This document shows, piece by piece, positions 1 to 61,110 of a stretch of DNA of 64,000 bases. Both the position numbers and the translations under genes were made by a program. How positions within the stretch are numbered: position 1 is the first letter of the stretch; each line of letters opens with the position of its first letter. Origin of the DNA: Tubulanus polymorphus (lineage: Eukaryota > Animalia > Nemertea); contig NC_134026.1 of the NCBI RefSeq assembly GCF_964204645.1, positions 29,794,150 to 29,858,149 of the forward strand. The letters run 5' to 3'. A model generated the notes under the pieces. That model was not told the origin of the DNA. It saw only the letters and a list, made by a program, of their open reading frames with translations, and searched no databases.

Positions 1-3000
1 GCTGTTTTTGACGAGCCATAACTATCCACTTCATTGCGCTCAAGATTCTTCTTTTCGGCTTCTTCATCTTCGATATCAGATATATCTAAGCGTTCTCGCG
101 TTTCGTGTCTTGTCCAAAAGGTTAATCTAACCAACTACAAACGAACAAACAATAATTGTTTAACATATGAATATTTGTATTCGGCACGATTGGCGTTCAA
201 AATCGAGTCGCGTACCCGATCATCTGGTATCTCTTTAGTAACTAGGCTGATTATCGTTGTAGAAATTGCGACAACGAAAAACAGGATGATACCGAAATGA
301 AGATAATGAACATCTTTGATAATGGACGGACGTGTGTCTAGATGTTCCTGTCCGCATGGTGGAACGGTGTACGAGAATTCCCAGCCGAATCTGATCATAC
401 CAGTAACTAATCCGATCATCAATCCCCAGAATGCGCCCTGTAATAGTGATGATGAATACAATTATAGAAATTTTCAAGATAAGTATTCGCCTTTCATTTC
501 ATGTGCGCAGGTTCGGGATCTTATCAATCTTATCCCAAACATACGCAACGTACATCCAAAATTCCATGCAGCCGAAATGTGGATTTTTGGTAGAACGTAT
601 ATTTCCTAAGGGCCAATCGCTTTCGTGGATATCACACATATTATAAACAATTAATTGTTCAATACCTGTTCATTAATCCTCTTCCAAAGTACAGCTAACA
701 CATAAACAGCACAAATAGGAGGAGCGAGATAACTAGTGACGGCTTGAATATAGTGGAATAACTCACTACCAGATTGTACTACTGGAATCCAAGCGATACC
801 AACACCCACTAATACCAAAACAAACACTCTGTGTAAAAATAAAGTCAAATGTCGAATTTTCTTAAGAGATGTTTTCATTTTGAAAAATTACAATATGTCT
901 ATTTAAGTATTATACCTTCCAACAATCATAAGTTCCACATCGGACGCATTTTTTCGCATACGTTTCCAAACATCTATGGTGAATATGGTACTTCCGCTGT
1001 TGAAAATGGACGTCAACGACGACATAAGAGCGGCCATCATACATGCCAACATCATTCCACGAGCTCCAACTGGCATCAGTTTCAACACAAGCATCGGATA
1101 TGCAATATCAGAACATCCTCGTTCTTTACCGCAGTATTTCTTACATGACTCAGGATCAGAACAACCAACGGTATCTAAAACACACCACGATCATCCGCAA
1201 ATCAAGCATATAAAAAAATGGGTCTTGTGATTAATGAACCTTTTTAGTTTTACCTGGGAACAGAATACGAGCCATCATTCCTGGGAAGACGAGCAAAAAC
1301 AAAGGTAAGAATTTCAAATATCCCGCTAATATAGTTCCACCTTTAGCATGAGACAGATTCTTCGCGGCCAGCGCTCTTTGAACTATCACCTGAAAACAGA
1401 GACGCAGAAAAATATCGTTACAAAAACACTCGATAACAATTAGTTTCACTAAAATAATATGGGTCTTGTCGAGGTAGTTTGTTACCTTTACTTACATTTT
1501 GGATCCAGGGGATACGAATTAGAATATGTTTATACAAACCTGATCAGAACACCAATACCACACACCAGATACAGTTAAACCAAATATGACTCCTGTCCAC
1601 GGTAGATCAGGAGAATTTACATCACGAAATAGATGAAACGCGTCGGGATTAGCTAATCCACACGCAGTGGTACTATTTAACGAGGTTGTGGGAGCAGATT
1701 CAAAATACTTTAGCGCCAATTGCTGAAAACCGCCAACTTCAACAAAACCTACACAAAATATGATATACGTATAGACTCGAATAGAATTGAAAACTTCCGA
1801 TTGTTTGATAATCGATGATTAGATCTGAATTGTTTAGATTCATTTTGATAGTTCGTGATTGTAAGTATGGGTTGCTGGATGCAATCAAACCTACGTACCT
1901 TGCTCGTGTCATCTGCGGAGATTTGAACTGATTGAAAGGGGTGAATCGAAATAGTACTTACCTCCTATGATAGCGTATTGGGAGTTAATCGTCATATCGT
2001 ATATGAGCTAGAATTTTGAAGAGATATTATTTGAACAGTGGATTCGGGGCTAACCTGATCAGAACACCAGTACCATACAGATGATATAGTCAAACCAAAA
2101 ATGACTCCAGGCCACGGTAATCCTCCGTCACTCGCTGATCGAATCAAGTGCATTGCATTACTTGGAGGAATTCCACATTTTTCATATGTTCTGTTTGATT
2201 GGTTGAAATATTTCGATGTCTCTGGCCATGCCGTGTAATACGCGTCCACTAGATTTTCATATCCTCCGACTTCATTGAATGCTGCGTAAACATGTGATAT
2301 CACATAACAGAATATCAGAGACTGCAAACTTTTGATAAATCAGTGTTTTTTAAACTGAATGGATTAATTCGTGGGAGGGAGTTAGATACCTTTGCCTTGT
2401 TAGATGTCAGAGGAAACCCAAAAGCATTAAGACGAACCTCACCTTGTGCTAAATACGTTAGATAAAACATGTTGGTGATGTTTGCTAGAGAACGTCCTTA
2501 GTATATTGGGTAGAGATATACAGAAGATAGTAGTGAATTAAAGGTAATTTGAAGAAGTTATATTTGATAACTTAATGGTGCCCAGGGCCCAGTTTCACGA
2601 AAAAGTTTAAGCCTAAAACGGTTAAGTTTGAATTGTTGTCCTCATTGAAAACATGAAGTAACCAATGGAAAATTACACCAAAAATTTGAGTTTAACTTTT
2701 TTGTGAAACTGGGCCCAGAGTGTTAGTGCGAATGCAAGCTAAATCATATGTCAAAAATCGATTCAATCATCACGGTAGTTTTTTAGCTATAATTGATATA
2801 CATTTTTAACACACATACCTAGAATCATCAGAACAAAAGCGCCAATAATCATAATAATTGTTTGAATGAAATCAGTCCAGATTACAGCCGTCAGTCCACC
2901 TTTAAAAATAGTAAAATATATACCATAAAATGCATCGATATTACCGGTATGAGATCGGTATCAAAATATCATCGGAATTAACATAGAAATCAACCTGTTA

Positions 3001-5540
3001 TTGTAAATATAGCTGAGATTGCCAACAGGATCACTATTGCTACATACAAATTGAATTGTAACGATTGTTGGATAAAAACTGCCCCCGCGTATAAATCAGC
3101 CTGAAAAAAATAGATAAGGCATATATACCTCAATTATAAATTCATCCAGTAGGATGAGTGTGAAGGCCGTATTAGATTCACGGGATTTTTTGATTTAGAC
3201 TGATGCGGTATTTTTGTGCTTTACTGCTAAAAATCATCAGCTCGCATATACATTACGTATACTGCTAGGCTATATGATACATGGAATTCATTAAAAGAAT
3301 TCTCGGAAACAAGGAACGGGTTTTCAGGTATTATGTCTCGTGACATGCTTGATCTATTAAAAGACAGTCAAACCAGATATTATCAAAAAAGCACTTCATC
3401 GCAGCCATTTACTAATTCATAGGACAATAGACACGTCTGAATTTAGTTGATCAAGTACGCACAACTTGACTCTTCAGAGAGTATAGTCGTGTAGTGGGGA
3501 GGACAACTTAATTCTACCCGGGAATTTCCAGATTCTACTAAAAAATCTACAATTCAATCGTAATGCTAAATGCAATGGACGTACTGATATCTTTGTAAAT
3601 ATATACAGCAGCAAAGCTAGAATCGCCAGATACACGCGAATTCTTTGACCTCCAAATCTCTTTCTCAAATATTCGGGCATCGTAAAAACCTGCAGAATAT
3701 AATAGAATTTCATTAACCTAGATCTACGTATGCATAAAACTGATTATTCGGTGATAATAAAACATTATTGCCTGTCAGGTAGATATAGCTTTAAAAAAAA
3801 CAACGATGAAATTGTCAGTGTATGCCAACTATTTGTCGGTAACTTACCCCAGCAGCGATATAAACAGGTACGAATATCCATCCTAACAGCAACAGAATGA
3901 ATATTGCCTGCAACATTAATATTTAGATATTACATTGATTATAGTTTTCTAAGATTCATTAAATTATTCTTTGATTTTTATTACACAATTCAAACACAAT
4001 AGTATCGGTAGATATTGAATATATTGGTGAAGTAGCAGGCAAAACATACGACAGTCCATTAATGAAAATGCAGGAATATATTAGCATGAACTGACGAGTT
4101 ATTCTTTGTTTTCATACGGAATGTAAAAGCTACCAGGTGATGCCACTCTATCGGTGTACGAAATTATCATAAAGATTCATGATTACATTCAGTTCGAACA
4201 CAGCAATTCCAATACCACTTGCAGCACCCGAACCTGCCAGACCAACGAAATGTCCACTGCCGATATTACTCGCGAACAGTGAACCGCCCACCTGAAAAAT
4301 ACAGAATATCCCGAAATTACTAATTCGAGTGGTTTTCCATCAAAAAACATAGATTTAAAACGTGTCAATGATAATTATATTGAAAATAAAATTATCTCTA
4401 CTCATTTACAGGTAAATTTTGTGGCGAAGGTGTTCTGTTTTGATCTACGCTATAAAGGCTTCAACTAAATGTTTATCAGCTTAATCAATAACGTACGTGA
4501 TCCACGTTTATATCAAGTTCAATTAGAATTGGAGATTCTACGTTATTTCCATTGACTTCATTGAACAGCAGTAGCCTACATAAAACTATACAATATCACG
4601 TAGAGTACTGTGATCTTATATCGATCAAACAATATTGACGACCGTTAACATAATCGGGGAGAACAGAAAGTTTTAGAGGCTTGGTGGAATTTACTTCGTG
4701 AGCAATCGAATCTTATCAAACCTTATTAACTTATCTTCTTATCTTACTACATGAAACATGTAGGATAATACGGTACTCAGAACATTATGCATATCTAAGA
4801 CTAGTGTTATTCGTCGAGAAATCCATTCGCCCTTTTGTAGCTTAATTACTTCACGAGGAAGGCATGAATTATATTTTTACGAAAACTGGTTTGAAAATCA
4901 AGTTTTAGTTGAATCATATAGACCTACTGTTAATAAGGCAGTTCAACATGACCCAATTGAGCGGGTCATGGACTGAAAAAGCCTCATGAATTTTTGTCAT
5001 GAATAAAAGCTAGATTTATTTATTATAGGCGTTGTTCAAATTCTTAGAAAGTAAAGCTCGGAGGAAGTTCAGTCAACAACAGTAAAGATACATGACAAAG
5101 AGTCCAGAAGGCTTACCAACATCCAGTGCATATTTCTTCCAGCAAGGAAATATCCCCCGACGCTTCCTCTGTTTCTCGTAGATGACTTAAAAGAGGAAAG
5201 ATATTAATGCTTCTACAGAACCAATTTTACTTAGATCTATTTATAGTAGATTTATAGTTAAGCCCAATCTTTCCAGTGGAAGCTTACTAAACATCAATTC
5301 ATATTCTTGAAAAACGATAATATTACTCGTAAGAAATGAGATATTTCCGACAGATGTGAAATAGATACCGGTACATAATTGATCTTAAATCTCAGCTGCT
5401 TGATTGGAGAATTCAAATCCAGTATTTCTTACCCATATTCCGAATCCAAGAATGATAACAAAATAAAGTACTATCACAACAATATCCGGCCATTCTAGAT
5501 TAGTCCCTTTTAATAATTTCTCCTCTTCAACCGACGGCAT
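1..5540 (-). CDS. Sodium/glucose cotransporter (SLC5A, SGLT/SLC5A9-10-like); multi-exon, 3' end outside window
   Basis: ATG at 5540 ([27 protein letters not shown]). Exons encode SSS-family motifs [111 protein letters not shown] introns. Confidence 0.93.
1540..1748 (-). other. SLC5A alternative exon B (209 nt) of a mutually exclusive pair
   Basis: tttgtgtag|GTTTTGTTGAA...GATCAG|gtttgt; encodes (G)[69 protein letters not shown]; same phases as exon A. Confidence 0.85.
2055..2281 (-). other. SLC5A alternative exon A (227 nt) of a mutually exclusive pair
   Basis: tttacgcag|CATTCAATGAA...GATCAG|gttagc; encodes (A)[75 protein letters not shown]; phase 1 in, phase 0 out. Confidence 0.85.
2586..2715. 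mobile_element. MITE, PIF/Harbinger-like (copy 1)
   Basis: TIRs GGCCCAGTTTCAC...GTGAAACTGGGCC flanked by CAG on both sides (3-bp TSD); near-identical copy at 34548-34676. Confidence 0.8.
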
Positions 5541-5827
5541 TTTGTAGCTTTAATGGTTTCTTTTCATTTGACTACTGTAACCTTATGAATACATTCGTCG
5601 ACAGTGACAGGACAGCCCGCGAGTCCCGATAACCAGTTTCACAGTGACCGTACACTGCTGACACCTACCGGCAGCACTGAGACCGTACACTGCTGACCTC
5701 TAGCGCTGAATCACAGCTCTAATGGACGTCAAAGAGCGTCGTAAATGAAGTAAAGAATATCAAAATGTTTATCATCCTCGTTTATGTCATTTAGAACTGT
5801 TCGCAAAAATAAGACTGATTGATTGAA
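5541..5827. promoter_or_regulatory. Bidirectional promoter region SLC5A/CACUL1
   Basis: Divergent ATGs 287 nt apart; 17-bp direct repeat GACCGTACACTGCTGAC at 5646 and 5681. Confidence 0.6.
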
Positions 5828-7824
5828 ATGATGGATGAACCAATGGATGACGCAATGTGTGATTCGACAACCGGTGAAATTGAATCATTTATTGATGGCG
5901 CAGCAGCAAACTCTGAAATTGAGCTGGAGGAAGATGCGGCTTCTTCATCTCTTGTTGTTTCATCGCCACCGCAGCATGATGATGAATTAACCCCTAAATT
6001 CTCTGTCCTGAAACCTGGTTCAGGCAGTATGAGTAAGTGTATTTCATTTTTATCATCAAAATTCATGTCAATTTCTGCCGAAGCCTGAACCTGAAGGATG
6101 ATATCCTCCTTGGTTGTTAAAAACTGAATTATATTTTTGAAAACAAAACCCTTCTTTCTTATTTTCTAGTGTTAATGAAGATTTCCGATGAAGATTACGA
6201 GAAAAAATATTGGCCGCGTTTGGACAGCGCGATTAATCAGTTATTGACAATGAAACCCGGAGAGTATATACCGATATCGTATGAACAGATGTATAGTTGT
6301 GTTTATAAGTGCGTATGTAAACAGTTCTCCGAACGTTTATACAACGATTTATGCCAGAAAATTACTACACATTTACAACAAATCAGCATTCAACTACAAA
6401 CATCAGTAAGTAACACAGTGAGCTCAAACTCCAGCTTAGCTAGTCGTGGAATAATCGTTATGATTATGAGTTAAACTTAATGAATTGAATCCCTACTTTG
6501 AAATTGGAACTAATAGAGATGACTAATGAAATAATGGGACAATTTATCTGATGACGACTTAGATTATATTTAAGAATCTAGGTTTCAGGCAATACGGTCC
6601 ATTTCTCAGTTGAAAATATGACTTTATATGTTGAAACATTGAAAATGAACTATAGTAAACCTCACCTATTTCCGGACAAACTGGGACCGGCAAAATTGGT
6701 CCGAGGTAACCGAAATCCGAGTTAACAAAAAATACGTAAGGAATTTCCTTATGTATTTCCTCAGTCAGAAAAAAAATGATTTCGTTTTGAGTTTCAGTAA
6801 GACAAGGTTTACAATAGTTTTCACTTCATAAGTCAAACTCATTACTGTGGAACTGGATATTTATTTCACAAGGTTCTTATTTGTGTTTCTTTCACAGTCA
6901 CATGACAGTAAATTATATATAAAAGAATTTCACAACGCATTGAACCAATATTTGAAGGCTCTCGGTGGAATTGTACCTATATTCAATTACATGGTAAGAG
7001 ATGAATCAATGTGTTGAGAATGCTTCTGGCGCCAGACTTCATTACATGTGAAATTTTTTTTATTTTCAGAATCGTTTTTATGTCGAGAATAAATTGCGCA
7101 CGGATTTGAAAGTTGAATTACTGAAATTATTTGCAGACTACGTTGCTGACAAGCACGTACCAGTAATACTGCGTAAGTCAAAAATTTGAATGAATTTACA
7201 ATCTGAACTGAAATCTTGTGAGGTAGTTTTTAGTAATGATTGTATGAATTGCAGCGTTAGTTGTAGAAGCCTCCTCTGAGCCGTTTACATTTCCTCCTGC
7301 GATGATGTCAACACTTGTCAGAAATTTGTATTCTCTAAAACCAGGTAAGGCATCGTTTTCATGAAATATGCTTCATTTAAGATATTCAAACTCGCTCGTA
7401 AACTATTTCAAACATTATGATTGAACATCCATTATTTTGAATATTTGTATTTGATAGAATTCTCACAAATGAGGCCGCACTTATTTGCCAAATATATCCC
7501 GAATGTGATGCCAGCTACAGCTGAATCGGATTTAACTCAACTAATAGAAGAAACTAAGCGTATGCAGAGAGATTTAAGGACTCATCCGCTTTTCATGAGG
7601 TGTGAAATATCTCGCAATTATTACAGTGCATTCATTGATAAATATTGAAAGAAACTTGAAAGTTATTACAAAAATATATTGCAGCGGAGATCAAAGCAAA
7701 AAACGTGGAATTGAAGATGATGCTCAAAGTAAGTATTGATCATTACATTTGATAATACCCATCCATATGAATGAATATTGGAGTATTTTATATTGCAGTG
7801 TGTACCGGTATTCCGATGTCATGA
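5828..7824 (+). CDS. CACUL1: CDK2-associated and cullin domain-containing protein 1
   Basis: Exons encode [82 protein letters not shown]; stop TGA 7822-7824. Confidence 0.9.
6651..6816. mobile_element. Tc1/mariner-like MITE, apparently nested in an older MITE (about 6596-6858)
   Basis: TA-TAGTAAACCT...AGGTTTACAA-TA ends; shares TCCGAGTTAACAA and CAAACTGG (inverted) with the element at 14937-15064. Confidence 0.55.
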
Positions 7825-12900: not shown

Positions 12901-15900
12901 TCAAATAGATATTTCAGTTTCTCCGAAGCGTGTCCCATTTGAAGGTACGGGTGATGCGTAATAATATCCGACCTTAAACAGATAAAGCAGCAATATTTCA
13001 GTTTATCAGTTAACCATCAGAATATAGGGACACAGTTTTAGGGCATTTCAGGGACTCGTACCTTTGACGACTTAATGTATAGATTTCTCTTTCCACCATC
13101 CCTCGAATAATTGCCAGTTTCTTTCCACATCTGAAATCATTTTGATAAATTTCCCTCATCGATGTTTTCTAATGCGTAGAGTACTGATGTCTATAGGCAG
13201 TAAATGAATAGTTACCTCGTATATAGAAATGCTAATGGTTTATCTCTGGGTCTGTGCTCGAATAGACTGTTACACGGATTACCGGAATTAGGAGTCATAG
13301 TCGACTGTACGAGTAACGCCGTAATACCACGAATAGCGAGTACAACGCACTGAGTTCTCTCAATCTCTTCCTACAATTCATCACTCAACATTTAGCATAC
13401 ATTAAATACCGGTAACACGAAGTCTGAAGCCGAGTATCCGTTCAAATACTACCTCGACTGATAGACGTATCTCCTCTTCGCCGTAGTGGACAGGATTTAT
13501 CACCCCTAATAAACACATCCACGTTTCCTCGAACTGTTGCCGATTCACCCATCCGAGCGTATTAATACGATAAATAAACTCGCGCAGAACTTCTTTCTCT
13601 TGCAGGTAATCTAACGGCAGAGGAGGCAATGCGGTTTTCGAGTCAGGATCAGGGGTAGGTAACCAACCCATACGCCATACGAGCGGAGGAACCCGAGCGT
13701 AACAGTTGACCAGCGGTAGTCGAGCTAAACCTATACATATAATAAACACTGGTCAGATACAGGCAGTAGATTAAATACTTATACGAGTAAAAATTCAAAC
13801 TATACTTTACCAATAATACAATTTCTCAGTGGAGACACCATGAACTGCGGTATTTTATTTTCTCGATGTCTTCCTTCCGTAGATAGATGTACTTTCAAAC
13901 ACTGTACGAGTTCTGATATTTGTCCGCAAGCGTGCAATAAGTAATCCGAATCTAGAAAAAAAAACCGCTTAACTTGAGACGTCGATTCAACTAAACGAGT
14001 GAAACGAATATGCGAAATTCTTTCGATTAGCTACCATCAGTTTGATCATCCTGACTATCCTGACGATTGATTATAACAAGTTTCTCGGTAGGAATTACCA
14101 ACACTGTATAAGAAATACAATAGACATTACAGTTATCTGTTTCAATTACAGCTACTTTTGTGTTTGAGAAATAATAATTCACCTGATGTTAGTAATTGAT
14201 GTACAGCGTTTATAGCTGAACAAACCCAAGTATTATATTCGGGTTGACTCAATAGTGAAGATAGTTGTGTATTCTGTAGAACTAATGACAGACATTGTAT
14301 TGATGTCTGAATCCTGTCCGATGATACAAGTTGGTCGTGCAATAACTTCCAATGTACCAACTGAAATTTACAGCACATTTACAGCATAGTTTTAGAAAAT
14401 TCCAGAGATTTCGTTGCTATCAGTTCTCGAAATCGATGAAATGATTTATGCATACCTCTAATGATAAAACGGAGAATCTGACGATGTCTTTTGCCGGTTC
14501 TGGTTTAATCTCTGCCTCCGAGAACAACAAAGACAACGAGATGAGATACCGAACAAGCGCGCTCAGAATATGAAACAGCGTTTCTTCGCATGACGTTTCG
14601 CAGAACACGTCCTCCATTTTCTCGCGATATCTCAGTTTACGTGAGCTGATATGATCTCGATACGTGATAACCTGATGAGGGTTCGGTATCAGGTTCACGT
14701 GTGTATTGATACGTCGAAACATCGTCAGTTTCGTCGCCTTTAACAATGGATCCATGTATTGTTCTATCGAGACGGCTTGTTGGAATGAAGTAGCGCTGTC
14801 TCGTGATTTATTAATCGTTATCAGTGATTTATGGACACCCAGTGCAACGCAAGACTCCAAAATAGACAAATTAAACTCCTGAAATATAAACAATACACGT
14901 TTTGGATAAAAACATCTATACAGCTCTAAGAATATACAGTAGCTTCACCCAATACAGACTTTTGACTTTTGCCGAAAATGAAAATATTTTCTTATTTCTA
15001 AACTTGTTTTTCCAATTGTTAACTCGGACTTCACCAGTTTGCCCGAGTTGGGCGAGGTTTACTGTATGTACATGTTCGAGGTTTTTACCTTGACAGTAAT
15101 TATTTGATGAATGTCATTATAATCCAATCTTTGAAGTAACATTGCGCATTCTCGAGGTCGCGGAGCGCTGCTGAAACATTGTTCCTTCGTTATAGACATA
15201 AACCATTCCTGAAGGGTTACATCATATATAAGTGTAATCCATGAACGGTATTCATACAACCAGTATTCAAAACTGAAATACTTACCCTGTTTAGGACGAT
15301 ATCGTTTGTACTGGATTGTGTAAGTACGAGAGGATGTGTTTTGTCAGCGGACAGAGTATTTTTACTCTCAGGACATAAAAGATTTCTCATTTTTGTCAGC
15401 AGTGATGAAAGTCTCGGATGTCTTAAGGTAAATGAAGCAATATTTAAACAAACAGGTGTCTGAGCTTGAATATTCAATAACCCGTACAATGATAAATACC
15501 TGATAACTAAACCATTAGACTTCATGAATTGTAGAAGTTTCTCTATATCCTCTAACGGTAGTTGATTATTACTATCCTCAACTTTTTCAGCGAGCAGCAT
15601 TTCAACTCTTCGACACGCGATCGTATCACAGATTCTCGCTACAGCCATGTGTTGAGTATGTAAGAATTTATCGATGAGTAACGTGAGCAGCGTTCCGCTC
15701 TGACTCAGGTGAATCGCTTCTAAACATTGTAACGTTTTCTTCACCATCGACGGCTGAAAATACCGAAAATACATACGATCTTAGTTCTATAGCCAATCTA
15801 ACAACTTAAGACTAGATCTTCATGGAATTTCAGAATCAATCAAAATCAGTTTAGATAGATATTTGCCTAAATAAGGAAAGGAACCGCATTTTCTTTACAA

Positions 15901-18900
15901 CGGTTTCTAAGAAGTTAAAAAATGGTCCGGAAACAACCAGAGAGGAACATACCCGGCCGAGGTTCTCACATCTCGAGTGTATAGCCTGAATGAATAATCC
16001 ACTCGCTGCTGAATTTCTGTGAATAGCGCTGATGAAATCTTGCACCGGAGGTTCGTAAGCCTGAGTTATTAAATCACCGACATGATTTATAATCACCCAA
16101 ATCATATGCTCCGCATCAGTCAAATTCTCACACTGAAAATAACACAATCAGTTCGTGAAAATTTCATTTGATCAATTTCTCATCTTACACATCATAGCGG
16201 ACCCTAAACCCTTACCACATAATCACAAAACAGCATCAGTCCACCTCTACGTACGACTTCTTGAGAACAGCTCAATGTACCGGGTTTCGACGGTTCTGCA
16301 GGTGGATTTGAATGACTGAAACAAAACAGACACGTCTGTCAACTGTGAACGATCATATATGCATTTGAACAGTGAATTATTTAGTTGAATTACCTCGGAC
16401 TGGACATCATATATTTCTGTGGAGTTTGCATGACTCGACTCCACCATTCCTGTTTATCGTAGTTTAACAGTATCAATATATTACACCACTGTAACGTGAA
16501 TGTAGGGTATTTTTCGGACAGCAATAAGAAATATTCATTGATCTGTTCGATGCTGTAGAACGAACACGTCGTCTTCTGACGAATAATACGCATCGTCGCC
16601 GTGGCAACACGTCGAAATTGACCTGCAAAAATCAAATAGGTAAGACTTAGATTGAAATTGTTTGATTTTATGCATGATCTAACAATCTTAACAAATTCTC
16701 CTGACTTCCCCCCGATTTTTAGCTCTTTTATAAAAATTCCTTGATTTTTTCCCCAATTTCCAGGTAAGCGGCCACCCTGAAGTGACTGTCAGTTCATGAG
16801 CGAAAAACCCACAAAGTTATATTACATGATTGTGGTATTTTGCTAATTCTTTTGATATATTGATTACAAACCTGATTGAAACATGTGAGTCATATAGAGT
16901 AATAGATGTGATAACTGTTGCCGTAGGAACATACTGTGTGCCTGTCCCGATAACAAGCAAGTGCATAAACGACTGAGTTCAGATGACACAGCACCAATCA
17001 CCTGCATCAATAATCTATCAATCAAATAAACAACTATTAGTGAAATCAGAAAATGTTAAAATGTCATTTAAATTGAATAAATAGATTTTGTTTCAAAAGT
17101 TTATAAATCTTTTGTCTATTTTCATCCCCCTCAACTGTCTGAGCTACAATCAGAGCATTAATAACAGGTTTGAGGTTTCTTATCATTTGAGAGGACAGAG
17201 AAAACAAACATTCGACTGATAGACTCAGTGACCACCAGGATTCGAACCCATGAACCCTGGATTGAGAAGACTACTGACCACTCAGACCCTGAGTATCTAT
17301 ATGTATTCAATATCGCTATAGTGAATGAATCTAACCTGGCGAGTAAATCCTCTGGTTGTTGACTAGAATCCGACTGTGTTTGAGATTGACAGTCAGTTTG
17401 ATCACGTCGTCCCATGTGAACATCAACCGTACACGAATACAGTTTCACCGATAAATTCAACTCTTGTAAACGTGATAAAACCGTCTCTTCTTTAGACTGA
17501 GATATCAATACTCTTAATATACTCAATACCATACATAACCATTTCTCCAATTGATTCACGCACGACTAGAAAATAAAAATCATTCTCAATTCAATCGAAA
17601 TCATTCTAGAACGACTGATTTTAAATTCCGATATCCGGAACAAAATCTTAGGAACAAAATCGATAATTTTGAAAGATAAGTTAATTACCGAGCACACATT
17701 CAAAATTTTGTTGTGGGTGTTTAATGTTTAAGCAAAACTTACCAAATCATACGGATCAGAGAAAAGAATTTTGAGTATAACATCGACAGGTCTGAAAACA
17801 CTTGGTGCAACTGATTCGAATAAACGATGTAAAACATCCAACGCGAGTTGACTGTCGATGTTTATTTGTTGTTTCGAGAGCATCGGTAAAATGACGTCGG
17901 TGACTTGACGCGAAAGTCTCTTCCATTTGTCTTCACTTTCTCTGTGACACTGATTCAATACGATAATCACTAATTCCAGAACCTTCAAACAATCATAACA
18001 ACATTCATTTTATTGTTTCAAACTCGTCGACCAGAATGATAAAGCGGGTTCGATTATTACAAACGGAGACCGACCTGATAGTAATGTATGAGTCGAAGTA
18101 ACATCGAAACGACGACTTCCCTTTGTGTATCTAAATCTTTACCGGCGTCGATTTTATTCGTTCTCATAATGAACAGATCGTGAACAATCGGTTGAAGAGC
18201 GGGAATCGCTAAAAAACATACAACAAATTACTAACCCTATCACCAACCTGTGGAGAAGATAATTACATTGCAGTGCGGTGTATCAGGGATTTACAGCTAT
18301 ATAACCTCTAAGCGCAATGCGCAGTATTGTTATGGTAAGCGGATGATACATTTTATAGTGGGGGGTACACGCATTAAACAGGGTTAATACAGTACAGAAA
18401 GTTGATGATTGCTGTTTGCTGCTGCTTACCGTGTGTTGTTGGTTGTTGACCACTGGCCATGATCCCGTCACAAAGTTGAATAACTTTAGGCATTCCGATG
18501 ATTGTTTTCGAATGATAACGTTCGTAAGATAGTAGAATCAGAAAGTGGAATATATGCGGGATCAGACTGTCCGAATTTCGGATCTGACCTTCTTCGATAT
18601 ACTCGAACTGCTTGATTACGAATCCGATGAAAATCTAGAAATATAAATCTTCGTGATGAGAAAGTTGTCTACAAAATGAGCGCCTCGTGGGAAGTGCCTC
18701 TTCTTACCTGATCAGAATCGAGTAAACAGTAATTAACGCGTAGTTGCACTAATTGAGCCAGTAAATCTAACACTTGTTCCTGTAATTCTAGCGAACTCGT
18801 AATCGTGTACTGTTTCAATGCTTTAATAACGAGTGGTTCGAACAGACGGATGTACGACGCTATCGAATTCTTATCCGTTTTACTGCCAGGTTTCAATATC

Positions 18901-21900
18901 GCCGGAACTTTACGCTCAGCACGCTTACGAAGCCAACCAATTAAACTGATGAAAGTAGACAAATAATATAAAGGGTGTAAAGGAAGGTTAACCTAGCAGG
19001 GTGGCCAATCTATAGACTTCATTACATCATTATATAACCAGCTGCCTGGTGAACATCTCCAGCCATATAAAATTGATATGTTGGTGATGATTTACTACTT
19101 ACGTTCCGGTATCGTCCTGGTCGACGGATGTTTTGATATTGCACCCGGCTAATGATTGCGTAAACTGTGTGTAAGGCGTCGTAAAACAACTGTGATACAA
19201 TCCCGGTTTCATATTCGACGATAGATGTCCCGGTTTTATCGGTTTTCGTGTCAGCACTGCCATCTGTTGGTCGTCCCACTGACTAGCGAGATTCGTACCG
19301 AATAAAGACTTCAACAACTAAAATAGAAATTACATCATCAATAAATTGCGATGATTTAAAAGCAGAGCAATGAATTCCGACAAGTTTCATTGAACTAGTG
19401 GTTTATTCATGCAGTGAGTGTAGATTTTTTAGAAAATAGTGCCATATAAGAAATAGAATTAATCATTATCATTCATTCATTCAGAAGATGAATAAATGAC
19501 TAGCTTTAAAGATACTTTAAGAACTTTTTTTTTCAACCTTAGCGTGGAATTGTTATATCATTGTTACAATAAATGTGGATAATACCTGCTGTACACAGAG
19601 TACTGTAGATATGGATTCTAATGTAAACGTCACTTTCAGGTAACTGAGGATTTCCTCAACATGGCGCCCGATTTCGGTAAGCGTACCGATCTCCAACAAC
19701 TGCGAAAATACTCGTAAAACAGTCGCCAGAAAACTACCAAATTTATCCGACGATCCAACCTGCAGATCTAATGATATCTACAACACGAATTAATTATCAC
19801 ATTCAGTATTATATATCTAAACATTTCAATCATGACGTTCACACAAACACACATACCTTGTAATTCGAGTAAGCTCCTTTCAGGATATCATAAAGCTTCA
19901 TATAATGAGGGTGGTTGTAAAATGTTCCGATTCCATCCTTTTTGTTCTTTTTGTCTTCTTTGTCATCTTTTTCTGTAATCGCACGATTAAATCGATAATA
20001 AGTTAATGGTTTACGCATAACCAAGTGAATCTAAACTGGGTGATCTCAGCGGTGATACCTGGTTTGCCTTTCTGTACCGGGCGACCCGGACGTTTCATCT
20101 CACCCGCCAGATGTTTACTGCTTTTACTTTTACCGGAGCCATCATCTTTACTTTTAGGTTTTATCTTAATCGGACTGAGAGTTGGATTCGGTAGTGAAGG
20201 TAGGGAGGGTTTAGAGGAGGGCGGTCCGGGTGATTGCTCATCAACTACGTGAGCGCAAACATTCAATACTCTGAAAATACATATGTATCGAGTGTATTCA
20301 CTTAAACTATTCATCATCAATGAGAATCACTGAAATTACTCGGCGAAATACCTAATCAAATGTATAAGAAGTTTATCGGCTACATTAACGAGAGTTCTAT
20401 CACCGAGCACGACCCAGTGGTTGTCACCATCAATATTAGTTTTTGTACTGTCATCCAGAGGAGTCAAACAGCGTAGAGCGGCCCCTAAATTCATAGATCG
20501 TCATTAGCAAGAGCTTTTTCAAAATTGTACGGTAAAAATCGAGATGCCACTAGGGCGAGGCTTACCAGAAAATAGATTACCAGACAAGAGCAGAATATCT
20601 TGGTGAGATGATATATCAAGTGATACCGATGACGACGTTAACAGAGAAATTATCATCGGCAAGTAACCGGTTCCACAGCAACTGATCTGTTCGTTTATAC
20701 TCGTATTCATAGCACCTGACGTCAATGATGGCACACTACAAACGAAAGATCATTAGTTTAAATCTGAAACATCAGTTTGAAGATGATCTATCAATGGCTA
20801 TTAATTCAGTACCTGGGTGCGTTCCCGATAAACGATCGAGTCGAGTATTTTCTCATCGACACATTAGATGGCGCTCTTTCTCTTACAGGCGTCGCTGTCA
20901 TCGGTAAACAGCACCACGCCTCGCTGTAGCGGGTAGTCAGGTATTTTTGTGATAAATGACACAAAGCCCGACAGCAACCAAACTGTGAATGAAAATGATT
21001 ATAACGGATTGAATTCCTGATAACAGGACAGAAAAAGAAGCACATAGAAGACAACGCTTGCCACAGAGACAATTACTCCAATTATCGCGTGGCCTTTCAG
21101 AATTCATTCACTGCCACATAGAAAATTAAACGCCCGTACAAGATCCAGGCCAAGATTTCAGTCTACTGTTATGAAACTTACTGTCATATATTTGGAGGTT
21201 GAACGAATCAGATTTTTCATGATTAAAGAAACCACTCTGGATAAATTCGCTTCGATAGTTGAGGAAAATTTCGAATATGGATTGAAATGAAATGGTTCGA
21301 CGAGGCCATGAACGAGAGCTGGTGGAGATTGAGACCATTCCTCTAATACTGGATCCAAATATTTCTCCGTCTGCTCCTTGGCTATGGCTATAATCGGATC
21401 ATATTGCGGACTGTGAACTGGATAGAACAGTTTAGGTACTAATCTGAAAAATCAATGATACATTGTGAATATGTTTTTATTTTCGGTATTTAGTAAAATC
21501 ACTGAATAAAACATATCCTTCTCACTTGACAATAGATTGCGAAGCAGCATTGCGAACTCTAGCATCGTCATCTCCTAACAACTGCATTATAACGTGTTCT
21601 AACGTTCTCTCTTGAACTCCAATCACCTGAAATAGAAATAAATCATTCCCTAAGTATTACACAATACCTGAATAAATAATGTGAAATCAAAGAAAAACTC
21701 TTACACCAACAAAATGATTGTCCTCTTTGATCAGATTTGAGCATTTCCTCTCCAGGAAGAAAACCACTTTGAAATCTAAACGCGACAATAATTCCAACAA
21801 TTCAACCTGAAAAACAGCGAAAAATAATATTCACAATCAATATTATTGTTACCGTATATTATGTAAACATTATCATCATTATTTATCAAACGAACGAACA

Positions 21901-24900
21901 AACGATATTTCAAATATAAGAATAGATACAAACCTTGACAAGCCAGTAGGGATTATCTTTGAGGGCGAGAAGCGATAGAACCATCGACAGACCGAATTCA
22001 CAATGATTACTGTGTAGAATACTAGGTAAGCACGTATGTAAAGCAGTCATACCGAGACGAGTGGCGACTGATGAATCATCGCGTATTACTGACATTAACT
22101 GATTGACTATATGATGAATAGTCAGCGAACCTGTCAAATACATATGGCAGAATCCCAATGATTGTCAAATTCATGTAGCGGAATCTCAGTGATTGTCAAA
22201 TACATATGGCAGAATCCCAATGATTGTCAAATTCATGTAGCGGAATCCCAATGATTGTCAAATGCATGTAGTATAATCCCAATGATTGTCAAATGCATGT
22301 AGAAGAATCTCAATGATTGTCAAATACATGTAGAAGAATCTCAGTGATAGTCAAATACATGTAGTATAATCCCAATGATTGTCAAATGCATGTAGAAGAA
22401 TCTCAATGATTGTCAAATACATGTAGTAGAATCTCAGTGATTGTCAAATACATGTAGTAGAATCTCAATGATTGTCAAATACATGTAGTAGAATCTCAAT
22501 GATTGTATGTTAAGAAACATGAGAGTTATGTTGTTAAATAGTTTAGCAAGAGACTTACTAGTTGTAACCTGATTCACCGATTTCAACCAAATGTCGTAAT
22601 TGCCCTGGGATTCGAGCATGACAGCGTGTATGAGGTTCCCCAGCAGTAACGCCGTCAATCCTTTTAGTTGAGGATCACAATGATTTGCATAGAGCAATAA
22701 ATCGGTTACTTCTTGGCAAGAATCTATAATGCGATGTTATACTTTTAATAATCAGTTTCTTCAGTAATGCAGGGAGCGATCATTATGTTGACGGACGACT
22801 TATCCAGTATTAGTTTACGAAGTATGAAACATCTTCGGAAATGCTAATTGTGACTCAAAAATTGAGACGACTTAAATAACGCAACAACTTTCTGAGTTTG
22901 ACTGAATTGTGGCACTTACCATCATCGATATCAACGTGTAGTCGCTGGAAAAATGATTTCGGATAAAAACTGACGGCAGATGCCACGCAACCTAACGCTA
23001 ATGCTTTCACGCTAACACGAACAGTTCGATCAGGCATCAATCCGAGTTTAAAACCAGTCAGTAAGAATCTACTCGTCAACAATCGCACGCAATAATTCAC
23101 AGGAATCGTGTGAACATCGGAGAATTCACCGATCGACGAATCACGAATCGGAGTTTGAGTCGGCGACGTTTGACTCGACGCAGGAGTAGCGACATCTAGT
23201 GTCTGAAATGGAAAATATAAAATGCATGGCGAGTTCCAACATATCCTTATTTTCTTAGCCAAGATATCCTCAGAGGGGGCTGTTTCTCCTCGAGAGGTTC
23301 TTTGCGCCACTTGTCACCAACAAAAAGGAGGTTCCTGATTTTCCTAATATCACTTACCTCTAATTCATTTCCATTGATCATATCCTGACTGACTCCTTTT
23401 CTAAGTTGTGGTTTAGGTTGATGAGAAGGGCTGGATTTATCGGTAAGTGTATCAGCGCTGCTGCTCGCTGATAAACCTTCGCGAACCTCTCCTATTACTA
23501 TATCGGAATACGTCGATTCTGACATGATGATACGATTCTCTTCATCACCTGGTAAATCTATAATCTCCGAACTATCCAATTCATCGTCCGCGTTGTTTTC
23601 GGAAATATCGGCGGCGGACTCCGAGGCGGCGTCGCCGAACACGTCATCGGCCATCACGGGACTCGAACGATCAGTCGATCCGGAACCGCTTTTATTGGAC
23701 TGTCGATCGGCGTCGTCGTCGAGACCGGCGTCGTCACCGACAGACGGAACTCGACTCGATTGACCTGAAATAGCTTAAAACAATAAACAAACAGAACAAG
23801 CCGTCAGATTAAACTAATAAACACCAAGCAAAAACTAAACACTTTACTGAGCAAAACCATACTGGATGATTTAACAATATATTCCAAAAGTTTCCAAGTT
23901 TTGACTGAACTTCATCGACAGAGAAATGAAACAAAAAACAGTTTATGTTTGCAACTACCAGTAAATAAAAATAACTAAAGGCATCAGATTGATGGAATTT
24001 TTACTTTTTTTTTCACACCATTACAATTGGCTTCTTTTCACATTTTCGCAATGAAATGCACAATAGCTTAAGCGGATACTAATCACAATCTGGACATATT
24101 AGATATTTTAGCTCCATGGTATAGGGATGTATGGTATCAAAAGGGGAACGAAGCATTTTGACCGGACACTTCTTTTCATATTTTCAAATCAATCTGATTC
24201 CAATCATTGATTAAATCAAAGAAAATAAGCACATCGAAACCCTACAAATTGCGAATTAATTCTCAAATTTTTGTTGAAATTCCGTAACTTACTTAAACGC
24301 CTATTTTCATTGGTGCGCACATCATCCGGATATATACTCGTACAAATAATACTCCCTCTAGTGACTAGAACCTTCACTAAATCAGGTGGTGGCGTACGCA
24401 GGAGTTGTTGAAGAGTTTCCAACGAAGCAGTCACTACATTATGATCAGTATGTCCGCTGTAGTGAAGCAATAATTCATAGATCTACAAAATATCAATGAG
24501 GACACGGTGTGAAAGTCAATCAGGTTTAGAAAACTGCATTTTTCTTCAATTCTCACCTGAATAAATTGTACGGTACCAATCTTCAGTTCTTGTTCATCGG
24601 TCATAACCCCGAAGCTGCCTTTTAAACTGAGATCAGCCTTGTCAGCGGTGACCAGGTGTGGAATTAGATGCCGTAGTGTGAGAAACACGCCCAGTAATAC
24701 ATGTACGTGCACATTCTGATCAGTAACAACCGGTATCAACATATCTATAAAATATTCATTAATCTAAATCCTCTAGTATTTCCAGTAATGAAGACTCCCT
24801 CCAACTCGATCATGGTAAGCATGAATCAACCAGGTGGCGATAGTGTGCATTAGGGAAACGATGACATATTTCTTCTAAGATTCGATTAGAATTTATCCGT

Positions 24901-28242: not shown

Positions 28243-29226
28243 TCATCGCAATTTTTTGCACATTACAATTTTTCGAAATTTTTCGTTAACAATGAAATAA
28301 ATGAAGAAGTTTATGAGTGAGTCAATTTGGCTTAACAACATTCCGATATACATTTGACCGGCTGAAATATCATCCAGCACTATCATGTAGCGTAGTATAA
28401 ATGCTGCATTTGGTGTTTCAAACAGAATAAAAGCTACGATAACCATCGCAATCATACGTGTTGCTTTGACTACAGATTGCCGGCTGCCCTTTTGGTTCGT
28501 TGTCTGCCCCATATCACGTCGACGGAAATATTTGATGAGAAAAACCAAAAGGATTAAATTGATTACGATAAGACATGTGAACGGTACAATGAAGGTGAAT
28601 ACGACTATTGATATTATGTGAACGAGTCCTGTCATAAGACCATATGTATGGTAATACGACTGATGAAAAACATGAGCGCAAGACATTTTGTGATAAGCTT
28701 TCTTGTACATAAATATGTAGAAACTTCCACAAGTAACAATGACATACAACATAATTGTGACACATCTCAAATATTTTTTCGTAAGCCATAGTCCTGATTT
28801 CAGTGGGAAGTAGACCGCGAGCAGTCGCTCAAGACCTAGAAATACTATCAACCAGTTTCTAACAACCATGAAAATATGTCGACAGGGAAACATTAACGCA
28901 TCAACCTCCGGTAGATAGCTCTTCCAATTTCTGTACTTGTAATATTCTCCGAATCGCCAATATCCCAACAGCACTCCGCTTTGCAATGGCATCGAGACAA
29001 GTAGAAACAAAGCATCGACGATGGAGAGCATTTTTAAAAGGTAGTAACCAGAATTGAACGGCAATTTTTGCAAAACGCAATGGGAAACCACGTTCAAAAC
29101 GAATCCGACAAACTGTATCGGTAAACCTACAATTGTCTCGTATATCATTGCATACTGTGTCGAATCGTGAATTCTACAGTCGTGGTAAGGATCGACAGTC
29201 GTCGTGATGGTTAAAGTTGTATTCAT
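28243..29226 (-). CDS. Intronless rhodopsin-class GPCR (FMRFamide-receptor-like/putative chemosensory), copy 1, 327 aa
   Basis: Seven hydrophobic segments, N-terminal NTT sequon, ERLLAVYFPLK (DRY variant), FILFETP, INFFIY..NEKFR. Confidence 0.88.
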   Translation of the reverse strand: MNTTLTITTTVDPYHDCRIHDSTQYAMIYETIVGLPIQFVGFVLNVVSHCVLQKLPFNSGYYLLKMLSIVDALFLLVSMPLQSGVLLGYWRFGEYYKYRNWKSYLPEVDALMFPCRHIFMVVRNWLIVFLGLERLLAVYFPLKSGLWLTKKYLRCVTIMLYVIVTCGSFYIFMYKKAYHKMSCAHVFHQSYYHTYGLMTGLVHIISIVVFTFIVPFTCLIVINLILLVFLIKYFRRRDMGQTTNQKGSRQSVVKATRMIAMVIVAFILFETPNAAFILRYMIVLDDISAGQMYIGMLLSQIDSLINFFIYFIVNEKFRKIVMCKKLR

Positions 29227-29898
29227 GGTAGCAATTTCAAACGTAGCTGTACGCCTTGCATATATTTTTCATCCAAACAGCACTGTTCTTTTTACTCTTC
29301 TCAATCTCCAAATCTCCCTATATATTCAGAAACGCATATCATTTCAGTTCGTAAATCCATAAAGCTTGAACAACGAACCAATTTCTATGTGTAGGGAAAA
29401 CTACATTTGCATGCATTGAACGTGTCTTGCAATGACAACCAGGAAAGTGAAAGCATCGACTATGAAGTCATTAACATGGTGAGACTGATGGAATATGGGA
29501 TTCAAAGGATGAAGAAACGATTTGACTCCCATTCTTCTATTATTTTTCTGGAATCTGATCAGTCAACATTTTACATTCTGTATTTCGAACCCCGTCGAAT
29601 ATCATGTGTCAAATATACATACGACCAAGCTGACTGAGTTGTAAATTATGTCATGGAAAGTGGGACAATCATCACAATTTTATTCTACATACAATTAAAA
29701 AGTACTCAGAAATACTGTAGTTTGCGGCCTCTCATCAAGCTAAAATGATTCAGATTGCGAGCAGTCCGAAATATACCTGATAAATTGAATTATTCTAGTC
29801 ATTCTAGATTTACAAAACTAAGTTTGTCGTATAATCATCACGTGTTTTATTTAAGGAGCTGTACCGTAATTACCGCCGATCATCACCCAACAGATATT

Positions 29899-30794: not shown

Positions 30795-31778
30795 TCATTT
30801 TTTGCACATTACAATTTTTCGAAATTTTTCGTTAACGATGAAATAAATGAAGAAGTTTATGAGTGAGTCAATCTGGCTGAACACCATGCCGATATACTTT
30901 TGACCGGCTAAAATATCCTTATCACCCTGCCCATATATATAACGCAGTATAAATGTTGCATTTGGCGTTTCAAACAGAATAAAAGCGACGATAACCATCG
31001 CAATCATACGCGTTGCCTTGACTACTGATTGTCGACTGCCCTTTTGGTTCGTTGTCTGCCCCATGTCACGTCGACGGAAATATTTGATGAGAAAAACCAA
31101 AAGGATTGAATTGTTTACGATAAGGAAAGTGAAAGGTAAAATAAAACCGAATATGACAATTCCCATCAGGTGGGCGATTCCTACCATGAGATCATATCTA
31201 TGGTAAATCGACTGATGGAAAACATAAGCGCAAGACAATTTCACATTAATTTTCTTGTACAAAAATACGTAGAAACTTCCACAAGTTACAGTAACATACA
31301 ACATAATTGTGACACATCTCAAATATTTTTTCGTAAGCCATAGTCCTGATTTCAGTGGGAAGTAGACCGCGAGCAGTCGCTCAAGACCTAGAAATACTAT
31401 CAACCAGTTTCTAACAACCATGAAAATATGTTGACCAGGAAACATTAACGCATCAACCTCCGGTAGATAACTCTTCCAATTTCTGTACTTGTAATATTCC
31501 CCGAATTGCCAATACCCCAACAGAACTCCGCATTGCAATGGCATCGAAACGAGTAGAAACAAAGCATCGACGATGGAGAGCATTTTCAGAAGATAGTAAC
31601 CAGAATTGAACGGCAATTTTCGCAATACACAATACGAAACCACGTTCAAAACGAATCCGACAAACTGTATCGGTAAACCTATAATTGTCTCGTAAAACAT
31701 CGCATACTCTGTCGATCTTTTTATTTTACAGTCGTGGTAAGGATCGACAGTCGAGCTGATGGTTAAAGTTGTATTCAT
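30795..31778 (-). CDS. Intronless rhodopsin-class GPCR, copy 2 (tandem paralog)
   Basis: Colinear with copy 1; start placed at MNTTLTI (31778) by alignment. Confidence 0.88.
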   Translation of the reverse strand: MNTTLTISSTVDPYHDCKIKRSTEYAMFYETIIGLPIQFVGFVLNVVSYCVLRKLPFNSGYYLLKMLSIVDALFLLVSMPLQCGVLLGYWQFGEYYKYRNWKSYLPEVDALMFPGQHIFMVVRNWLIVFLGLERLLAVYFPLKSGLWLTKKYLRCVTIMLYVTVTCGSFYVFLYKKINVKLSCAYVFHQSIYHRYDLMVGIAHLMGIVIFGFILPFTFLIVNNSILLVFLIKYFRRRDMGQTTNQKGSRQSVVKATRMIAMVIVAFILFETPNATFILRYIYGQGDKDILAGQKYIGMVFSQIDSLINFFIYFIVNEKFRKIVMCKK

Positions 31779-32687
31779 GGTAGCAATTTCAAACGTAATT
31801 GTACGATATAGTGCGTATTCCACCAAACAGCAGTTCTTCACTCTACTCCGCCATTTATATCAGTATATATATACGTATAGATGTTCGGAAACGTAGATTA
31901 TTTCACAATGATATAACATCCATAGATAGAATAGTGAATGAAGCTCAGAGAAAACTACTTTTCATGAGCTTCTTACAATCGGGTTAAATCATTTGTACGA
32001 AATATTTGACTTGTACTATTATAATCATCAGTTTATGTGCATTTATATATTTTTTTGATCACCGTCAAATGTCACTGTTATTTTTCTAATTGTAATTGCT
32101 TTTGATGCCCTTCGTACCTTAGCATGTATTTATTTTGTATATCCTATTGACTTTGTTTAATAAAATTTATTTGTACTACTACTCAATATTTGAGTCAACC
32201 CACGTCATTTATGTGTCTCCTAATCGTCGTAAATCATTTCCATCTTGAAACTCGCTCAAACAATTAGTCCAGTGCAAGCCTGGCTGTATACTGAGACCCC
32301 AAGCTGGAAAATGAAAAAAAAACTCCAGGAACAACTAGAAATTATGTTCAAATGACGTCGCAATTCGTGGTAAAAAATATCATTGCCTTTTGGTGGATGG
32401 TTAATTCAATTAATCGTTACACGTGTTTCCGTTCCCTCAAAAACGATGATTGTTCTCAGTATTTCAGAGATAGTTCTCAGTATTCAGGACCAGACAAAAA
32501 AAAAAATTTTGTAGTAGCCTAGTTTCTATAACACTAATGGCGGGTATTCCCCCACCAAGTCACATGAATCTGATTAGTCACCATTTTCCACTATCAACAA
32601 GAACACCTGCATTATTTCCCCGTCGAATATTATAATTGTGCTACAAAGCTTCAAAACAAGTTGTGTTTGCTGAAATACATAATAGAG

Positions 32688-33674
32688 ATGTTGTTTATTT
32701 ATGCTGTTAGCTGTTTTGTTTCAGGTAACTGATTATGGAAATTGTTCATTGTCTCGTCGAAAGAAAATTCATCTCTTCGGTATCTATAACATTTTTCTTT
32801 ATACAGTGTTTATTGTCGCGGTAAATGGAGACAGTTTATGTTGGAATCGATCAGGAAAATGTCAAACTCATTCCACGCCATGTGCTGGTCCATCTGCTTC
32901 AAATCTATGTTCTGATTATGGTGAAACGTGTTGCCTGCCGCGATACTGTAACAGTTTGAATGTGATAGGGCGCCAGGAATGGAATGCTCGACCCCCGAAA
33001 TCGGTCAGTTATCTGAATGGTCCTATGCCTATGGTATTCATACATCACACAGCTATGGATTTCTGTTATAATAAAACATCTTGCAGTAAAGAAATGAGAA
33101 TTATACAGAATTTACACATGGACGGGAGAAGTAGGTTATGGTTAAGTGGAGTTATTCTGAGTGTTTAGAATTCCGCGGGTTATGAAACATCTCCTGGTAC
33201 CTGATGTAAGGTAATAAATAGGAAATTCCAAAAATGTTAAGAAAATATTCAGAAGTCGAAATCACCAGGAGACATTTCATGAATGTTTATATAATTCATG
33301 CAGACGCTTCCTATGAATAAATGATTTGTATTTTTCAAATAGGTTGGGATGATATTGGATACAGTTTTCTGGTCGGTGAAGATGGTAGAGTTTATGTGGG
33401 GAGAGGCTGGGATCGAGTAGGAGCTCATACTAAAGGCTATAACACCAGATCGTTAGGTATCAGCGTAATGGGTAACTTCATGAAGAGACGACCGAATAAT
33501 GCGGCATTAGATACAGTAAAACTTATCATCAGATGTGGCATCTATCTACAGAAAATCAAACCAGATTACGATTTATTCGGTCACAGACAAGTGAGACAAA
33601 CACAATGTCCGGGCGATTATTTCTATAATTTGATTAAGGGGTGGCCACACTACAAAACCACACCACCAGCCTAA
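32688..33674 (+). CDS. Secreted peptidoglycan recognition protein (amidase PGRP) with N-terminal six-Cys domain; 3 exons
   Basis: Signal peptide MLFIYAVSCFVSVFIVAVNG across intron 32725-32806; PGRP domain IGRQEWNARPP, FIHHTA, WDDIGYSFLVGEDGRVYVGRGW, GAHTKGYN, GHRQVRQTQCPG with His/Tyr/His/Cys catalytic set. Confidence 0.92.
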
Positions 33675-60966: not shown

Positions 60967-61110
60967 CTCAAGGTCGCAGATTGACTGGACTGTCATCATT
61001 TCATTCCGTTTTTAGAACGTCCAAGTCTAAGGTGGATATCAATATGCAGGTCACTGGTAAATGTTTGATCCTGTCAATAACTTAATGCTTTTTTTATTGC
61101 AGTTCAAAAA

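Follow-up and report, generated by a model that had tools for sequence, protein, structure and literature searches.

The window analysed here, a stretch of 64,000 nucleotides from the nemertean Tubulanus polymorphus (assembly GCF_964204645.1, contig NC_134026.1, positions 29,794,150 to 29,858,149 of the forward strand), begins with an SLC5A gene that is predicted, from its sequence and from structural models, to encode an SGLT-like Na+/sugar cotransporter of the sugar branch of this family. The eighth exon of the gene occurs in two adjacent homologous copies, 8A and 8B (in the following A and B), which are a real, expressed and selected pair of exons, probably mutually exclusive in use. The pair had been proposed in an earlier note made from the letters of this DNA, together with the idea that it might switch the sugar-binding site of the transporter.

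Organization of the SGLT-like gene

For the identification of splice joints, six sequencing runs were examined as assembled contigs, none of which is recorded as RNA or carries a tissue label. Runs X2 and X5, which originate from different studies, were treated as transcript data because they contain GT-AG joints of the gene; they are the only ones of the six with any splice joints, X3 and X4 have none, and no contig of X6 aligned. Contig depths were not taken as expression levels, and contigs lose rare forms. The gene is located on the minus strand in the first ~5.5 kb of the window, its ATG lies at 5540 and every intron shows GT-AG. Residue numbers (78, 83, 102, 255, 287, 290, 291, 321, 453, 457, 460 and 511) are those of human SGLT1, transferred by alignment to the structure 7wmv.

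5433..5540, minus strand: exon 1, coding from the ATG (frame reconstruction; joint 5185/5433 in runs X2 and X5)
5117..5185, minus strand: exon 2 (joints and frame)
4187..4291, minus strand: exon 3, with the equivalents of N78 and H83 (joints and frame; 7wmv alignment)
3848..3907, minus strand: exon 4 (joints and frame)
3585..3689, minus strand: exon 5 (joints and frame)
2995..3100, minus strand: exon 6 (joints and frame)
2819..2899, minus strand: exon 7, whose donor is joined to A or B (joint 2281/2819 in X2 and X5; joint 1746/2817, cut +2, in X2)
2055..2281, minus strand: exon 8A, 227 nt, with a long outer loop, two sequons and Ser in place of T287; protein P0002, 680 aa (both sides spliced in X2 and X5)
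1749..2054, minus strand: intron separating 8A from 8B, 306 nt, GT-AG
1540..1748, minus strand: exon 8B, 209 nt, with a short outer loop, one sequon and Gly in place of T287; protein P0001, 674 aa (joint to exon 7 in X2; contig 1538-1751)
1254..1389, minus strand: exon 9, common, with the K321 equivalent (joints and frame; alignment)
916..1174, minus strand: exon 10, common (joints and frame)
666..828, minus strand: exon 11, common, with the equivalents of F453, Q457 and T460; the segment swapped in Daphnia isoforms (frame; alignment)
216..437, minus strand: exon 12, common, with the equivalent of C511, the partner of the loop cysteine (joints and frame; alignment)
1..134, minus strand: exon 13, truncated by the window edge, beyond which the gene continues (joints and frame)

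A and B are adjacent and homologous, and their splice sites are intact. The acceptor of A ends in CAG and its donor reads GTTAGC; the corresponding sites of B are TAG and GTTTGT. Exons 1 to 7 sum up to 634 nt, so that both copies are entered in phase 1, and both are left in phase 0. Recalculation of coordinates, lengths and phases agreed with the earlier note except for the start of the downstream exon, which it had placed at 1390 and which is actually 1389. Both lengths are of the form 3n+2. The frame stays open up to the window edge when one of the two copies is used, while inclusion of both or neither shifts it, as the note had claimed, and leads to early stops. Since one contig of a DNA-like run spans positions 1100-2611 with 0 differences, the pair is not an assembly duplicate.

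Splicing of exons 8A and 8B

Mutually exclusive use of A and B is supported by the transcript contigs. In X2, exon 7 is joined to A (contig depth 297) and A to exon 9, and a further contig joins exon 7 to B with A skipped (contig depth 172; shorter side 25 letters). X5 contains a single contig of 2373 nt with A only. Neither a joint from A to B nor one from exon 7 to exon 9 is listed among the contig joints of X2 and X5, in which rare forms may be lost. Two protein records present in both NCBI and UniRef, P0001 and P0002, map to one contig of 31.9 Mb and differ exclusively within residues 212-273; these database models correspond exactly to the B and A isoforms, which means that automatic annotation had already called both forms, although this is not a description of them.

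Two points weigh against this interpretation. A joint from B to exon 9 is absent from the listed joints of X2 and X5, and transcript contigs with B come from a single run (X2) of a single study. The relevant X2 contig (1538-1751) consists of exon B and letters common to the flanking introns and to exons 7 and 9; its end at 1538 lies two letters beyond the donor, at a GT shared by the intron and exon 9. The intron behind B is covered by no X2 contig at 1420-1483. As A and B share their last 15 nt, the piece leading from B to exon 9 would be very short and could have vanished during contig cleaning. From the database model P0001 and the RNA contig ending at the B donor, we infer that B is joined to exon 9. 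Mutually exclusive use is supported by the entry into both exons, by the two protein models and by the missing A to B joint among those listed, whereas support for the exit from B is indirect.

Divergence and selection between the two copies

Both copies are under purifying selection, as judged from their sequences. Of 69 aligned residues, 35 to 37 are identical between the peptides of A and B, depending on the alignment, and the nucleotide identity is 57% overall. The ratio pN/pS between them is 0.44 with a bootstrap range of 0.30-0.63, which excludes 1, and 10 of 18 fourfold sites differ. From 227 proteins of 450-800 aa we obtained a set of 146 dereplicated sequences which, less the two isoforms, leaves 144 relatives; 13 positions of the segment are invariant in at least 97% of these, and A and B keep all 13. 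In a simulation of neutral decay, a copy that was still open and equally conserved was obtained in 12.5% of cases at distance 0.2, in 0.48% at 0.4 and in 0/20000 at 0.6 or more. The fourfold sites suggest a distance of ~0.5 per copy, with wide error.

The similarity is unevenly distributed. The last (3') 68 nt of the copies (window 1537-1604 and 2052-2119) show 85% DNA identity, the final 15 nt being the same, and 2/7 fourfold sites differ in this part compared with 8/11 upstream. Partial gene conversion or a constraint on splicing is a possible reason. Only four nonsynonymous differences occur in the last 22 codons, two of them within codon 287 (TCT in A vs GGT in B). A is nearer to the orthologs than B (mean identity 61% vs 48%), and B is the more distant copy in 39 of the 40 closest relatives. 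The annotated exon of molluscs and brachiopods, which is single, is more similar to A than to B.

Protein family and sugar pocket

The SSF domain (PF00474) was found in both isoforms with 452 and 454 bits over profile positions 1-406 of 406. AlphaFold2 predicts the fold of both isoforms with confidence, at a pLDDT of 84.3 (B) and 85.5 (A), and in a PDB search with the B model the top 15 matches were human SGLT1 or SGLT2, the best being 7wmv (SGLT1; TM 0.82/0.92). Compared with 7wmv, the equivalents of the pocket residues N78, H83, E102, Y290, W291, K321, F453, Q457 and T460 are retained. N78, H83, E102, K321, F453, Q457 and T460 sit in common exons, and Y290 and W291 are kept in both A and B, as is the loop cysteine C255. 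Of the known pocket positions, 287 alone is occupied differently in the two copies. The alignment to 7wmv agrees with the earlier note on Ser in A and Gly in B, and the numbers of sequons (two vs one) were also found as described there.

Position 287 is occupied by Ser in 91, Ala in 44, Gly in 6 and Asn in 3 of the 144 relatives. The gene resembles human SGLT1, SGLT2 and SGLT3/4/5 in its SSF domain, fold, pocket residues and variable position 287, which in the human paralogs is Thr in SGLT1 and Ser in SGLT2 according to the alignment, and Ala in SGLT3 and SGLT4 according to passages of two publications (PMC12322204, PMC12605011). The human SGLTs vary this position between genes, whereas the gene of the window varies it between splice forms, one of which carries the rare Gly (6/144). 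In a tree of the constant exons (quick method), which was built without SGLT1 and SGLT4, the gene belongs to a spiralian clade (SH-aLRT 95) and groups with none of the SGLT2, SGLT5 or SMIT2 sequences, so that orthology to one of these named vertebrate transporters was not found. Given this separation of the spiralian clade from the three vertebrate sequences, the name 'SGLT4-like', which databases give to the relatives, is uninformative on the substrate.

Tandem copies of exon 8 in other animals

The earlier note had suggested looking for the exon pair in relatives, and four other animal genes with two or three tandem copies were detected. Scanning of metagenome contigs with both exons revealed 77 loci. 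Four of these (L001, L012, L019 and L034) contain more than one copy of the helix motif; most of the others are short or intronless and thus uninformative. All exon 8 copies of the four loci have AG/GT ends and lengths of 3n+2.

L001: copies at 2982-3217, 3804-4015 and 4622-4833
L012: copies at 1163-1410 and 1572-1804
L019: copies at 443-693 and 2200-2438
L034: first copy cut, ending at 83; further copies at 960-1183 and 1878-2089

L017 and L024, whose exons are identical to those of L019 where they overlap it, provide exon 7 and the later exons of this gene. Among the 12 loci used for the constant exons, seven intron-bearing genes have exons 7 and 9 both located; three of them contain several copies (L001, L012, L017+L019) and four contain one motif (L020, L021, L027, L030). 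Seven loci that are closest to bryozoan proteins (L021, L023, L025, L027 and L029-L031) show an extra intron near the loop cysteine, which splits the exon 8 region, and a single helix copy.

From the 77 loci, 12 entered the analysis of the constant exons; L034 was omitted from the tree because of too few columns. The gene of the window, L001, L012 and L019 all fall into one clade of spiralian orthologs (SH-aLRT 95). Within this clade the window gene groups with Lineus longissimus, one further sequence and two flatworms (94), the Lineus protein being 80% identical to it outside exon 8, and L001 is placed with annelids (94) and L012 with L019 (100).

A careful tree of exon 8 itself (49 rows, 75 columns) pairs copies by their position. 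The first copies of L012 and L019 group together (100/97), and so do their second copies (100/97), which are joined by the single annotated exon of Lineus (96/94); in L001 and L034 the third copies pair with 95/87 and the second copies with 87/80. Since copies pair by position across species, the clusters predate speciation in two lineages, and the five multi-copy genes represent about three lineages and not five origins. DNA of position-paired copies is 63-65% identical (151/239 and 138/212 columns) with many third-position changes. No supported grouping unites B of the window gene with a later copy, and B is placed among short loops of the outgroup type. In a tree of the segment, neither a clade of A and B (p-AU 0.245) nor a clade of B and Lineus (0.238) was rejected. 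Taken together, the exon 8 cassette, with exon lengths of 209-251 nt, occurs within a single group of spiralian orthologs, in three or more of its branches, as far as can be judged from sequence comparison.

Possible functions of the exon exchange

It can be regarded as close to an even call, leaning slightly towards yes, that isoforms A and B differ in sugar affinity or sugar range. Exon 7 is spliced to one of the two tandem copies of exon 8, which is likely to yield two full-length transporters. Isoform A with Ser287 would keep the hydrogen bond to the C4 substituent of the sugar and act as a standard glucose carrier. In isoform B, Gly at 287 removes the hydroxyl; together with the shorter, singly glycosylated loop, the loss of this bond would lower the affinity for glucose or widen the sugar range, i.e., it would shift the transporter in the direction of human SGLT3 and SGLT4 with Ala287.

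Several published observations concern this position. According to passages of PMC12322204, the C4-F of 4FDG is bound by S287 in SGLT2, and the affinity for 4FDG is much lower in SGLT3, where 287 is Ala; S287T mutants of SGLT2 showed no measurable uptake and could not be analysed. In SGLT1, the exchange T287N makes the affinity for glucose fall below that for galactose, as stated in a part of PMC11061222. A review, in the section concerned, ascribes the mannose/fructose range of SGLT4 to H83L, T287A and Y290C jointly (PMC12605011). Copies that do not carry a hydroxyl at 287 occur in 3/5 multi-copy genes (window B and copy 2 of L034 with Gly, copy 2 of L001 with Ala). The first copies have Ser in 5/5 genes, and the later copies (n = 7) have Ser in four, Gly in two and Ala in one case.

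Some findings count against a sugar switch. Neither isoform has H83L or Y290C, the partners of T287A in SGLT4, and position 287 is variable among the relatives anyway (Ala in 44, Gly in 6 of 144). Most differences between A and B are located in the extracellular loop, and L012 and L019, two of the five multi-copy genes, have Ser287 in both copies. These last two findings speak against a sugar switch as the general purpose of the cassette; the switch itself is plausible.

The exchange might instead serve the loop. Both isoforms would then be functional for the same sugars and differ across tissues (e.g., gut vs body wall) in surface targeting, stability, turnover, kinetics, inhibitor sensitivity or partner binding. 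This is possible, although we place it on the doubtful side. About three quarters of the exon encode loop, and nearly all differences between A and B are found there. Where the first copy is complete (four genes), it is always the longest one (75-83 vs 69-79 residues). In L012 and L019 neither copy has been lost, the counterparts in the two species group with 100/97 in each case, and all of them have Ser287. In addition, the loop cysteine takes part in a disulfide of SGLT1 (PMC2151483), and the partner cysteine is kept in exon 12. However, in the helix of the window gene, two bases of a codon for a documented sugar contact are changed within an otherwise very conserved stretch, and Gly or Ala at 287 recurs in later copies of L001 and L034.

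Less probable, and in our view unlikely, is that B is spliced but redundant, as an equivalent copy under weak selection, or non-productive, as a regulatory dead end lacking a joint to exon 9. The unlisted joint of B to exon 9, the fact that X5 shows no copy other than A and the greater distance of B from the orthologs (39/40 closest relatives) would fit this, and reading through the intron sequence behind B leads to a stop after six codons. On the other hand, B keeps all invariant residues up to its donor, the B contig of X2 stops at 1538 by this donor with no contig over 1420-1483, and later copies are conserved between species (L012/L019 and L001/L034). Finally, it is very improbable, and largely refuted already, that B represents a pseudo-exon in decay or a second haplotype duplicated by the assembly: only 18 fourfold sites are available, the age is uncertain and 12.5% of the simulations at distance 0.2 would allow it, but the DNA-like contig across both exons, the 57% identity, the pN/pS value, the simulations at 0.4 (0.0048) and beyond and the splicing of exon 7 to B all speak against it.

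How exclusive use could be enforced

Steric exclusion is unlikely because the nearest branch-like motif, 71 nt before B within the 306-nt intron between the copies, is too distant from the donor of A. A check of the spliceosome type revealed ordinary GT-AG sites throughout A and B. Docking and selector pairing of RNA was not detected, as 0/5 intron pairs beat 60 shuffles (18 to 51 of 60 were as good or better). The remaining candidate mechanism is the frameshift caused by inclusion of both or neither copy, after which such transcripts would be removed by nonsense-mediated decay.

Inverted repeats in 1254-2899 are short, with the exception of one repeat element. Intron 7 contains, at 2585-2716, a MITE-like element with inverted arms of 26 nt that are 92% complementary and 80 nt apart. 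Its depth in the DNA-like run X1 is ~80,000 compared with 45 alongside, which indicates a very high copy number.

Other isoform pairs and candidate cases

Among 242 proteins, 204 near-identical pairs were compared, and only P0001/P0002 differ in the exon 8 block alone; 12 further proteins aligned by eye contained no exon 8 isoform pair. Isoform pairs of one SGLT gene of Daphnia in RefSeq (four species) differ in block 422-477 only, with 24-27 substitutions. The ends of this block match those of exon 11 of the window gene, and it holds the helix with F453, Q457 and T460; one form has the usual Thr at 460 and the other Gln.

P0104/P0123/P0086: Daphnia magna
P0087/P0138: Daphnia pulicaria
P0137/P0139: Daphnia pulex
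P0105/P0140: Daphnia carinata

Judged from the protein records alone, the block is likely to represent a second, independent mutually exclusive pair. The X1 and X2 forms (D. magna XP_045030640.1 vs XP_045030641.1) resemble the isoforms described here in that one homologous block, which is bordered like an exon and contains sugar-site residues, is exchanged, but another exon is affected. The six full-length members listed from D. magna transcript assemblies all have the usual form. Q457 and S460 of SGLT2 bind the C6-OH of the sugar, according to a passage of PMC12322204.

In the protein P0379 (101 aa), an open frame links the end of one exon 8 copy (Gly287) through ~24 codons to the beginning of a further copy. 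The initial part of P0379 is 77% similar to the locus L007, which is close to Daphnia-type sequences, and the protein may stem from an arthropod-like gene in which two tandem copies of exon 8 are separated by a very short intron.

Other candidates were rejected. P0059/P0060 of Bugula neritina, from contigs of equal length, differ over their whole length and are tandem paralogs; in these, long identical stretches alternate with divergent ones, as would be expected from gene conversion among neighbouring tandem copies. The forms X1-X3 of Haliotis rufescens show unclear multi-exon blocks, and the proteins P0003 of Ixodes and P0004/P0080 of Tegillarca have long insertions or are fused models. P0243 contains near-identical internal repeats and is likely an assembly or annotation duplicate.

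Other genes of the window

A spliced transcript on the opposite strand was found in run X2 at 5712-6387 (plus strand, joint 6032/6170, GT-AG). It is arranged head to head with the transporter gene and lies less than 200 nt from its ATG. Further features of the window are:

14420-23774, minus strand: huntingtin exons (Htt_bridge match at 15217-15780)
28243-29268 and 30795-31859, minus strand: two tandem intronless rhodopsin-family receptors
61081-62316, plus strand: BRF2-like TFIIB gene

Frames in 32686-33168 and 43693-55004 presumably resemble a peptidoglycan-recognition protein and a terminal uridylyltransferase. A Pfam scan of two frames in these regions gave no match.

Relation to known systems and significance

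Isoforms of the transporters NKCC2 and CAT-2 differ in substrate affinity. Tandem duplicated, mutually exclusive exons are known from SLC12A1 (NKCC2 exon 4 a/b/c), SLC7A2 (CAT-2A/2B) and SLC25A3, and in Drosophila such exons are enriched in transporters and channels (passages of PMC8373072). The gene of the window shares with these three genes the homologous internal exons in a transporter gene, of which one is used at a time, and the cluster of three exons in SLC12A1 is comparable to the three copies in L001 and L034. It differs from them as an invertebrate SLC5A gene with a long exon that encodes an extracellular loop and a sugar-site helix, known so far from sequence and splice joints. No SLC5A gene is named in the SLC passages of PMC8373072. 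In a full-text literature search (titles and abstract starts; subscription journals thinly covered), no description of mutually exclusive or duplicated exons was found for SGLT or SLC5A, including splicing in Daphnia and other invertebrates. Within the literature searched, this is apparently the first SLC5A case of mutually exclusive exons. It adds SLC5A to the transporter families with such exons; the mechanism itself is not new in kind.

Tentatively, and with considerable doubt, it may be proposed that invertebrates diversify SGLT specificity by splicing in addition to gene duplication. An old cassette of loop and 287 helix in two to three versions would serve this in several spiralian lineages, and the independent swap of another helix (Thr460 vs Gln) in Daphnia. 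Single genes could then alternate between the transport of glucose and the transport or sensing of other sugars. Single-isoform annotations of such genes may hide alternatives; for Lineus, only the later-copy type is shown. As the two isoforms are identical outside one segment of 70 residues, they represent a natural swap experiment on SGLT, which bears on two questions, i.e., how position 287 sets sugar selectivity and which role the glycosylated outer loop plays.

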